In this document: piece by piece, positions 6,574-9,272 of the stretch
Layout of the letters: every line of letters begins with the position of its first letter
How positions within the stretch are numbered: the first letter of the stretch is position 1
Source: Escherichia coli
GTDB taxonomy: Bacteria; Pseudomonadota; Gammaproteobacteria; Enterobacterales; Enterobacteriaceae
Strand: one strand, 5' to 3'
Length of the DNA: 64,000 bases
Assembly (NCBI RefSeq): GCF_003334765.1
Contig: NZ_QOWT01000002.1
Notes under the pieces: model-generated
Told to the model about the DNA's origin: nothing
The model's input: the letters and a program-made list of their open reading frames with translations, nothing else
Databases searched by the model: none
Made by a program: the position numbers and the translations under genes

Positions 6574-8514
6574 TCAGCAGCGGCTTAAATCTGCCTGCGC
6601 CTGAGCCAGTTTTTCTGCCGCCTGACGTAAAGGTTCCATCAACGGCATGGTCCGTGCTGGAGCATGAAGGCGGAATCGCTGCAACTCTGTCGCGCCGACA
6701 GTCAACGTCGATTCCAGCCGATGTCGTTTGGCGGTCATTTTCGCCATTACCGCTTGTCTGTCTGCTGGCGTTATCGCTTCATTCGGCCTGAACACAAAAC
6801 GGCGTTCACAGCTCGCTTTCCAGTCGATAACCGCCTGGGTCAGATGGTCGCCAAACCCTTTCACTTGCTTAACGCCACGACGGGTAACATCTGCGGCTGT
6901 TTCAATACCAAAAGACCGTAACGCCGCTTTACGCGCAGGGCCAACGCCGGGAATAGAGGCAACATCAATAAAAAATCCCTCCAGAAACTTCTGCTTCTGC
7001 CGTTCCCTTGCAGTGTCATGAAGTGCTGCCAGAGCGCGTTTCTCTTCTTCCGGTAACCCGAGAATTTCGTCCTTCATTTTTTCGAGCATCGCCCGTTTGG
7101 CGATAAAACCTTCCAGCCCGCCCAACTGTTGGCTCTGGCTGACTAAATGGTCATAGTCCATTTTCGCGCGATTAAATGCCTCACGGCGTTGCTGGATTTC
7201 TGCTTTATAAGCTTTGCTTGTCAGACTGCCAATAATCCAGATAGCCGCCAGCACAGGAACCAAAATAATATAACGCGGTTCTGCCTGAAGGCCGCAAAGC
7301 AGCAGCGATAATGCTGACAGTGCGATCTCAAGCAGAATGATGTATTCGCGCCGTAACAGGCCTAAAGGAAGCGGCCTGCCAGTCGGTTGGAAATGATCGG
7401 GTAATGGCAGTTGCAATGCTGGCGGTGCTACTGACGCCATCACCATCGCCCAGACTTTCGCCAGCACAAAATCACCGCCGGTGGTAATGACCTCTTCGCC
7501 GAGATCAATAAAATAGATAACGCCTTGATTATCCAGCGTACACCACGGGCAGTCGGTCAAATGAGCGGGATAAACATGCATTGCCGAAACGGGACATTTC
7601 TTTAACTGTTGGCGCAGAGAATCAAGTGCCGCTACCCACGCTTTAGCCGTCGGACGCCCGGTTGCCACGCCACTTTCCGTGAATGCCTGCTGAAACATGG
7701 CTTCAACATCACTCGGTAACATCGATAGCGGAATCGATCGTGGCGGCGGTTTTAAACCACGTCGCTGATTATCTGACGCGTAGGCATAACGGAAATGGGT
7801 AATATCCGTCTCCAGCGCATTACCCGCATCAGAGATAAGCGGCACACCAGAATAAGGATGCCGGCCACCAAACAAGACGTGAAAAATCAGCAACGCAAGG
7901 CCAAAATTATCGTGATTTTCTGTGCGTTCAAAGCCGACAAATGACGACAAGGTTTGTAGCTCTGGCGGCGTAAAATGCGACACGCCGACTTCGCATAAAT
8001 GCAGTGTGCCATTGGCGTTAATCTGAAAGGAGTCGCTATCAATCAGTACCACTTTGCTGTCGCGACCTACCATAAAACTGTTCTGGTTTACGTCACCCAC
8101 GACGTGCCCGTGCTCGTGAACCGTAGCAAAAGATGAAGCAATATTGCGCGCAACATAGAGTAGAAAATCCCACGCACAATGAGGGTAACGTTGACGACGA
8201 TGTGCCGGGCTATAGATCATATGAATCGGTTCTTTACCAGAAACTTTTGGCATCATAAAACCGATAACTTTTCCGCCTCGTCCACCGTGAAGCGTTGCCT
8301 GCGGCCAGGCGACATAATTCAACAATTGCGCGTCAGCTGTCGCAGCCATAAAGGCAAGTTTGTCCTGTTTTAAGGCGGGTGGCGGCGTGTGATAAATCTT
8401 GGCGACGCTATCGACAAACTCATTGATATCATAAACCGCGCCTTCACCGCCTTTGCCCAGTTCACGGCCTGGCGTAACGCACTCACCAGTAGCAGTATAT
8501 AAAGTGGGTTTCAT
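6574..8514 (-). CDS. yegI: Atypical membrane Ser/Thr protein kinase YegI with C-terminal helix-hairpin-helix region
   Basis: Gly-rich loop GKGGEGAVY, HGHVVGDVNQNS catalytic-loop-like segment, hydrophobic TM stretch mid-protein, GVGPARKAALRSFGIETAADV HhH motif. ATG at 8512-8514 overlaps the upstream stop (ATGA); ORF track start is GTG at 8523. Confidence 0.85.
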   Translation of the reverse strand: MKPTLYTATGECVTPGRELGKGGEGAVYDINEFVDSVAKIYHTPPPALKQDKLAFMAATADAQLLNYVAWPQATLHGGRGGKVIGFMMPKVSGKEPIHMIYSPAHRRQRYPHCAWDFLLYVARNIASSFATVHEHGHVVGDVNQNSFMVGRDSKVVLIDSDSFQINANGTLHLCEVGVSHFTPPELQTLSSFVGFERTENHDNFGLALLIFHVLFGGRHPYSGVPLISDAGNALETDITHFRYAYASDNQRRGLKPPPRSIPLSMLPSDVEAMFQQAFTESGVATGRPTAKAWVAALDSLRQQLKKCPVSAMHVYPAHLTDCPWCTLDNQGVIYFIDLGEEVITTGGDFVLAKVWAMVMASVAPPALQLPLPDHFQPTGRPLPLGLLRREYIILLEIALSALSLLLCGLQAEPRYIILVPVLAAIWIIGSLTSKAYKAEIQQRREAFNRAKMDYDHLVSQSQQLGGLEGFIAKRAMLEKMKDEILGLPEEEKRALAALHDTARERQKQKFLEGFFIDVASIPGVGPARKAALRSFGIETAADVTRRGVKQVKGFGDHLTQAVIDWKASCERRFVFRPNEAITPADRQAVMAKMTAKRHRLESTLTVGATELQRFRLHAPARTMPLMEPLRQAAEKLAQAQADLSRC

Positions 8515-9272
8515 GGTAACCACAGCGCCAGTGCCAACGTTTTATCATCATCCGTACGCTCGTTTACCGCCGGGCTGGACAAAAACTGCTTTAACAATTC
8601 AGGTAATAAATCGAGTTGTTCCTGCGTTGCTGACGCCAGTCCATTGAAAAACGGGGTAAAGAAAGGTACATGAGGAGAATTATCCAGCATATTTAACGCC
8701 AGTCGCTGGATACCATCCGTAAATGCTGCAACTTTATGCACACGCTCAGTGCTGGTGAAAGTTTCCAGTCTGGAAACGGCATCTTCATCGGTAATGAAGT
8801 GCGTCATATTGGCATATTCACCCACCATCGGCGTAAGCGGCAATTGCAGACCGTGACCAAAATCCACCACCACGCCGCCATCGCCAATCTGCATAATCAA
8901 GGTGCCATTAGCCGATGAAATCAATCCCAGAAACGTGCAGGCAAAATCGCGAACTGCTAATTCTTTGGCTTCCGCCTCGGCAAAAAGTCGCTGACGAACG
9001 GTCAGCACAATATCCGTGGCGAGGATATCATTAAGCCCCAATTCCCCACCCTGCACTTTTTGCGACATATAAGCCATCGCTTCATTGACGGCGAGCGTCG
9101 CGCCTTCTCCTCCCTGCGAAACGCTACCTGCGCCATCAGCAAGGAACATCACCAGTAATGGCTGCTGGTCATTTAGCCAGGCAACCTGCATCTGGCAGGC
9201 ATCCTGGCAAGGCAAGTCCGCGCTGATGTGCGATGTTCCAACAGCGGATGCATAAACCAGACGCCAGCTCAC
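8511..9272 (-). CDS. pphC: PP2C-family Ser/Thr phosphatase PphC (YegK)
   Basis: 253-aa ORF with the FLADGAGS metal-binding motif typical of PP2C; GTG start overlapping the yegL stop. Confidence 0.85.

Follow-up and report, generated by a model that had tools for sequence, protein, structure and literature searches.

The uninterrupted yegL-pphC-yegI operon is the majority and very probably ancestral arrangement in Escherichia coli, and the yegJ-bearing junction of K-12 the derived one

Does an Escherichia coli strain in which the phosphatase gene pphC runs directly into the kinase gene yegI lack something that the K-12 reference possesses, or is it the reference that has changed? The question is raised by a stretch of 64,000 nucleotides (nt) of E. 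coli DNA (contig NZ_QOWT01000002.1, assembly GCF_003334765.1; hereafter the window, to which all coordinates refer unless stated otherwise), in which yegL, pphC and yegI follow each other without the small gene yegJ. That yegJ is present in some strains and absent from others is already published: in REL606 and O157:H7, yegI (646 amino acids, aa) overlaps pphC by ATGA (Rajagopalan & Dworkin, FEBS Lett 2020; bioRxiv 10.1101/819920); in K strains, yegI and pphC are separated by yegJ, which points the other way (Rajagopalan, Nagle & Dworkin, J Bacteriol 2018, bioRxiv 10.1101/303594; bioRxiv 10.1101/819920); and Göpel et al. (RNA Biol 2026, PMC13232886) repeat this description of two arrangements. 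What we add are frequencies, the direction of change, the exact boundaries of the replacement with its chimeric protein ends and a syntenic yegJ in Superficieibacter, all of which are footnotes to that work, not discoveries. The arrangement in the window is the majority state among complete E. coli genomes, and the explanation that best fits the whole of the evidence, in which we have high confidence, is that the uninterrupted yegL-pphC-yegI operon is ancestral and that nothing was lost from the window strain.

Open reading frames (ORFs), tblastn, RefSeq annotation and the Sib units confirmed that yegL, pphC and yegI follow in this order on a single strand, flanked by yegD and Sib/mdtA (Table 1). 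An earlier note on this DNA had described the pphC stop codon and the yegI start codon as sharing an ATGA. The sequence (TCAT at 8511-8514 on the plus strand, within GGGTTTCATGGTAACC, reading ATGA on the minus strand), the translations (PphC ending in ...ALALWLP*, YegI starting with MKPTLYTA...) and the RefSeq annotation of an identical stretch all bear this out. The annotation is that of CFSAN029787, which is 100% identical to the window over 7500-9500 and carries yegI, pphC and yegL there with the 4-nt overlap and without yegJ. Equally sound were the observations that neither the junction nor the intergenic gaps on either side of the operon hold a yegJ ORF or the space for one: K-12 YegJ in tblastn and the K-12 cassette described below in blastn gave no significant match within the entire 64-kb window, the stop codons of yegD (6560-6562) and yegI (6574-6576) leave the 11-bp gap that had been noted, and the distance from the end of yegL at 9928 to the first Sib unit at 10075 is too short for an ORF of 153 aa. 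Other K-12-type features are absent from the window as well, with no DUF2314 gene between yegI and pphC, no 648-aa YegI starting MKTNIKVF... and no PphC ending in WAE* or WTE*.

The statement that K-12 carries yegJ in this neighbourhood on the opposite strand was right, and the alternative of an error in the reference order was not, as MG1655 has a 462-bp yegJ on the plus strand between yegI and pphC. The alignment against K-12, which had been set beforehand as the comparison to make, found a reference without the overlapping pphC-yegI junction. Population counts were made on 5,426 complete E. coli genomes, 5,416 of which have the yegL-pphC-yegI locus. A 121-bp probe for the yegJ-less junction (window 8455-8575) was contiguous in 3,472 of the 5,426, yegJ-cassette DNA was present in 1,934, and the two junction states together cover 5,406 of the 5,416 genomes with the locus. 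Since the junction is contiguous in 3,472 genomes, it is neither a chance feature nor an assembly artefact. The list of yegJ-positive strains takes in enterotoxigenic E. coli, blood isolates and animal isolates; yegJ, which has been called 'only present in E. coli K strains' (PMC13232886), is thus far more widespread than K strains, occurring in roughly one in three sequenced E. coli genomes.

The direction of change was read from an ancestry scan, in which PphC was used as the query against one genome per bacterial species and the order of YegL, PphC, YegI and YegJ was established by tblastn in the resulting 79 loci. These loci span Burkholderiales, Pseudomonas, Frankia, Myxococcota, Planctomycetota and Paenibacillus. 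The three genes lie side by side in almost every one, the operon is kept together in about 70 distant species, and tblastn gave a YegJ match in none of the 79. Closer to the window, an ATGA or GTGA overlap occurs together with a window-like YegI N-terminus in Escherichia sp. MOD1-EC7003, E. whittamii, Escherichia sp. E1V33, the divergent strain E69 and Klebsiella spallanzanii. Because deletion of yegJ could not plausibly recreate an overlap junction that is common to these outgroups, the contiguous operon is taken as ancestral and the K-12 form as derived. In K. spallanzanii, the operon (2686-6055 in fetched locus L009) keeps the ATGA overlap in another neighbourhood with no yegD nearby, and its products match the window proteins to differing degrees (identities of 84% for YegL, 63% for PphC and 62% for YegI); the next closest PphC relatives belong to Burkholderiales, at about 64%. 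Judged from these sequences, the yegL-pphC-yegI operon seems itself to have travelled between lineages.

Comparison of nine yegJ-positive genomes with seven independent yegJ-negative sequences (the window and six fetched loci) defined what distinguishes the two forms. In alignments of the window with K-12 and NCTC8623, homology breaks off inside both pphC and yegI. The 53-bp segment of yegJ-negative sequences (window 8467-8519) corresponds to 786-790 bp in yegJ-positive genomes (788 bp in K-12), and as YegI codon 16 (GGC) is still conserved in both forms, the truly differing stretch is about 50 bp. The cassette consists of a new PphC end, a hairpin, yegJ, an AT-rich intergenic region and a divergent YegI N-terminus, with breakpoints that are identical in 9/9 yegJ-positive genomes. 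PphC consequently ends in WAE* or WTE* in these genomes, versus WLP* in yegJ-negative ones, and YegI starts with MK(T/K)NIKVFTSTGE(L/M)TTLG and is two residues longer; the 648-aa YegI of K-12 starts with MKTNIKVFTSTGELTTLG, and the cassette-type 5' end of the gene reads ATGAARACAAATATAAAAGTATTTACATC. The proposal in the earlier note that the strain 'lacks the insertion' therefore holds as far as the lack of yegJ goes, but not as a simple insertion, given that 53 bp were replaced by about 787 bp and that K-12 has the minority, derived form. In strain 510016, IS1 elements occupy the yegJ position and split pphC; only a 64-bp cassette end with the hairpin remains.

Beyond the breakpoints, no fixed differences separate the nine yegJ-positive from the seven yegJ-negative sequences, and in the flanks the divergence between the groups equals that within them. 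A recent import with an extended divergent tract was rejected on these grounds, as neither fixed flank differences nor a tract are left. Among themselves, cassette alleles diverge by as much as 7.2%, a level comparable with that in the remainder of this fairly polymorphic locus. Shared breakpoints and flanks without fixed differences therefore point to one old event, with the flanks since shuffled by recombination: a cassette of about 787 bp would have replaced the 53-bp junction once, long ago, and is now found in about a third of E. coli genomes. The gene that it carries is under purifying selection, with a ratio of nonsynonymous to synonymous substitution rates (dN/dS) of 0.04-0.25 within E. 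coli and of 0.07 against Superficieibacter-type genes.

Where the cassette came from is a harder question, on which the 5' end of yegI bears most directly. Over alignable codons, the first ~16 codons of K-12-type YegI are about 55% DNA-identical to those of the window (hand count), and the encoded N-terminus, KVFTSTGELTTLGRELG, fits the pattern hydrophobic-aromatic-T-S-x-G-x4-L-G-R-E-L-G of the family, as seen in 79 homologues. As the family pattern is kept despite the divergence, this is a genuine, long-diverged yegI 5' end rather than random DNA that was inserted. Each breakpoint adjoins a near-invariant motif: the C-terminal motif of PphC in one case and the Gly-rich loop GRELGKGGEG of YegI in the other. 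A diverged operon copy already holding yegJ may have undergone recombination with that of E. coli at the closest islands of identical sequence; the source would then most likely have been a lineage whose own copy of the operon had diverged far.

Candidate donors and vehicles were sought and rejected. Among divergent YegJ variants (79-90% aa identity), loci L102 and L103 come from assemblies riddled with frameshifts, and L104 shows the usual K-12-type arrangement. YegJ had no matches on phages; on plasmids, its close matches comprise only three E. coli records, two of which, at 4.9 Mb, are evidently mislabelled chromosomes, and the other matches in the plasmid collection are distant DUF2314 genes in Devosia, Rhizobium and Neisseria. 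A search of 5.8 billion proteins with the K-12-type YegI N-terminus (44 aa) brought back nothing but short fragments from E. coli, belonging to one or the other allele type. Part of yegI also lies on NZ_CP083887.1, a 43-kb record in the E. coli collection, and three plasmid placements were counted for this chromosomal locus.

The nearest yegJ outside E. coli, with 75-76% aa identity, belongs to Superficieibacter electus and to a metagenomic contig related to it. It lies between yegD and mdtA in the K-12 orientation, without the kinase operon, and at the nucleotide level it is 75% identical to K-12 yegJ, compared with 77-79% for yegD and 78% for mdtA; no operon remnants were found beside yegJ in these Superficieibacter-type loci. 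Downstream of yegJ, S. electus (5914-9530 in fetched locus L084) has, instead of mdtA, a run of genes whose products match families of immunity proteins and effector fragments (SUKH, Tli3, Tle3_C, Imm52). In Salmonella enterica, two Citrobacter species and Pseudocitrobacter, the yegD-mdtA interval holds neither yegJ nor the operon, and a single Ibs gene is called in it in three of these four. The differing cargo across lineages, including the immunity and effector genes of S. electus, therefore marks the yegD-mdtA interval as an acquisition hotspot.

The two arrangements may also differ in how yegI is expressed. The two 4-nt overlaps suggest that yegL-pphC-yegI form one transcript with termination-reinitiation coupling, under which the phosphatase PphC and the kinase YegI, its substrate, would stay co-expressed; a promoter scan found no minus-strand promoter-like site inside the operon of the window. 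In K-12, the region between yegI and yegJ measures 199 bp at 29% GC. In the scanned K-12 cassette region, 8 promoter-like sites were counted (shuffles gave 2.6 ± 1.7), one of them about 58 bp upstream of the yegI start. The cassette would thus uncouple yegI from pphC in K-12, where yegI probably depends on its own promoter, as the published authors proposed too. Between the convergent stops of yegJ and pphC, K-12 has a stable hairpin (centroid about -19 kcal/mol, z-score about -3) with no U-tract; the scan found no canonical intrinsic terminator in the K-12 cassette, and we do not claim that the hairpin terminates transcription. What regulatory effect yegJ has could not be stated by the original authors because expression of the locus went undetected (bioRxiv 10.1101/303594; 10.1101/819920).

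The reading that the window strain lost nothing has to be weighed against other histories. One is that yegJ originally stood between yegI and pphC and was deleted from yegJ-less strains; in its favour are the age of the cassette alleles (up to 7% divergence) and the Superficieibacter-type yegJ, which shares interval and orientation and is as diverged as the flanking core genes. Such a deletion would, however, need to rebuild exactly the ATGA overlap and the YegI N-terminus of other Escherichia and of K. spallanzanii, while yegJ is missing from 79/79 other-species loci, and both yegJ and the operon are absent from the interval in Salmonella, Citrobacter and Pseudocitrobacter; this history is strongly disfavoured and, in our estimate, very improbable. 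An assembly or annotation artefact, or a wrongly stated reference order, deserves practically no credence: the junction is contiguous across thousands of complete genomes, carries the same RefSeq annotation and was described from REL606 genomic DNA, and K-12 does have yegJ, which refutes this explanation. A local rearrangement within Escherichia, for example duplication followed by deletion, would leave the window ancestral; it would have moved a resident yegJ into the operon, with the yegI 5' end diverging in place. It gains from the Superficieibacter-type gene, whose divergence is near that of the syntenic yegD and mdtA, and from the fact that no donor was found. Yet the low DNA identity of the first ~16 yegI codons, set beside about 97% aa identity in the rest of YegI, needs long independent evolution, Salmonella, Citrobacter and outgroup Escherichia have no resident yegJ to move, and the yegD-yegI spacer of 11-12 bp in both allele types shows no footprint of a former yegJ, so that we regard this route as unlikely.

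Several points weigh against the account of an ancestral operon that received a cassette from elsewhere. The genome collection is skewed to laboratory K-12 derivatives and clinical clones, so that 64%/36% are counts and not population frequencies, and each outgroup species is represented by one genome. The donor lineage was not found among the other-species loci or in the YegI N-terminus, plasmid and phage searches, and the Superficieibacter-type loci hint that yegJ may be native to the yegD-mdtA interval, which simple import from a donor operon does not explain. As for expression, we infer co-transcription and coupling from gene overlap alone, and the groups that published on the locus detected no expression of it in any condition (bioRxiv 10.1101/303594; PMC13232886). 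A history that would accommodate a native yegJ, and which we put forward only tentatively as a possibility short of an even chance, is that the polymorphism is old and recombining and arose by exchange between two deeply diverged operon copies: crossovers at invariant motif islands would have produced the chimeric YegI N-terminus, and a native occupant of the yegD-mdtA interval, yegJ, would have become embedded in the operon, splitting kinase from phosphatase. If this were true, E. coli would maintain its only Hanks-kinase/PP2C module in two forms that are wired differently, perhaps through balancing selection.

Compared with known arrangements, the window shares with the operon of REL606 and O157:H7 the gene order, the 4-nt ATGA, the 646-aa YegI and the position between yegD and Sib/mdtA. 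There is no structural difference from this B-strain/O157 operon, the number of Sib/Ibs units does differ, and over 7500-9500 the window is 95.5% identical to BL21-AI and 95.9% to an O157:H7 strain. With K-12 MG1655 it has in common the flanking genes and the bodies of yegI, pphC and yegL (PphC 93% and YegI 97% aa identity); unlike the window, MG1655 has the 788-bp cassette in place of 8467-8519, an opposite-strand yegJ (153 aa), the 648-aa YegI and a PphC ending in WAE*. A gene pair of a Hanks-type kinase and a PP2C phosphatase is also known as prpC-prkC in B. subtilis. In pairs of this type, as in the window, one operon holds both genes, with that of the phosphatase directly upstream of that of the partner kinase, which the phosphatase takes as a substrate. 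The module in the window differs in the vWA-domain gene in front, in a YegI that is missed by Pfam Pkinase and in a PphC without two usual residues. At this locus, K-12 is thus not a representative reference, as it carries the minority, derived arrangement, and work on YegI, PphC or YegJ should heed the different N-terminus of K-12 YegI and the different last two residues of its PphC.

Table 1. Features in and around the yegL-pphC-yegI operon of the window
Feature	Position	Strand	Basis
yegD, Hsp70-family chaperone, 450 aa; conserved left flank of the variable interval	5210..6562	+	ORF, RefSeq, tblastn
Spacer between the convergent yegD and yegI stops, 11 bp	6563..6573	.	ORF coordinates, sequence
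yegI, eukaryotic-like Ser/Thr kinase, 646 aa (1941 bp), B-strain/O157-type form	6574..8514	-	ORF, translation, RefSeq of identical stretch
53-bp segment swapped out in yegJ-positive strains: PphC codons 252-253 and stop, YegI codons 1-16	8467..8519	-	Alignment, junction listing, segment lengths
ATGA overlap of pphC stop (TGA, 8513-8511) and yegI start (ATG, 8514-8512)	8511..8514	-	Sequence, translations, RefSeq
pphC, PP2C-type phosphatase gene	8511..9272	-	ORF, translation, RefSeq; Pfam PP2C_2 on orthologous products
GTGA overlap of yegL stop and pphC GTG start	9269..9272	-	Sequence, ORF coordinates
yegL, vWA-domain protein, 219 aa; first gene of the operon	9269..9928	-	ORF; RefSeq of 99-100% identical locus; tblastn
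Sib antitoxin RNA units, three in tandem between yegL and mdtA, with Ibs toxin genes opposite	10075-10223, 10410-10552, 10738-10880	+	

The functions of the two enzymes are named on the strength of published biochemistry together with the conserved Gly-rich loop and C-terminal motif. Kinase activity of YegI has been shown biochemically (bioRxiv 10.1101/819920), as have the phosphatase activity of PphC and its dephosphorylation of YegI in vitro; PphC is without two residues that are usually conserved (bioRxiv 10.1101/303594). Profile searches say less. Against Pfam-A, YegI gave no Pkinase match and only a marginal HHH_5 at residues 515-550, a negative that agrees with its description as a kinase without conserved motifs, and its only matches in NCBIfam, to lanthionine synthetases in their kinase portion, were weak and sub-threshold. 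The 79 homologues conserve the Gly-rich loop GKGGEG. PphC reached 19 bits against Stp1_PP2C_phos in NCBIfam, below the cut-off of 230, and the orthologous products in L102-L104 (L104 at 95% aa identity) have Pfam PP2C_2 as their recorded family. PphC aa identity to the window is 93%-100% in E. coli and 85% in strain E69. Within E. coli, mean pairwise divergence reaches about 6-10% per 100 bp in central pphC (window approx. 8830-9230), versus 2-5% per 100 bp in most of yegL and yegI, and this excess is independent of the presence of yegJ.

For YegJ itself, NCBIfam held no family match, the DUF2314 (PF10077) label coming from precomputed Pfam annotation. The protein has been reported to bind to RNase E's catalytic domain, and its overproduction to cause a leaky envelope and Cpx/Psp envelope stress (PMC13232886). 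Its N-terminus, MKKILLMLSLLFFTTAGFS/EVSD (K-12 yegJ 5' end, 4221-4290 in fetched locus L001), resembles a Sec signal peptide and is conserved in Superficieibacter-type homologues, although YegJ is tabulated as cytosolic in PMC13232886.

Outside the operon, the Sib region varies as well. CFSAN029787 has two ISEc60 copies among its Sib units (6052-7242, and 7684 onward, in fetched locus L002), and the window, which has none, therefore derives from another strain. Two Ibs genes are annotated near yegL in K-12 and SCU-172, three in O157:H7 and four in BL21-AI and PKF4; in Salmonella and Citrobacter freundii, there is one.

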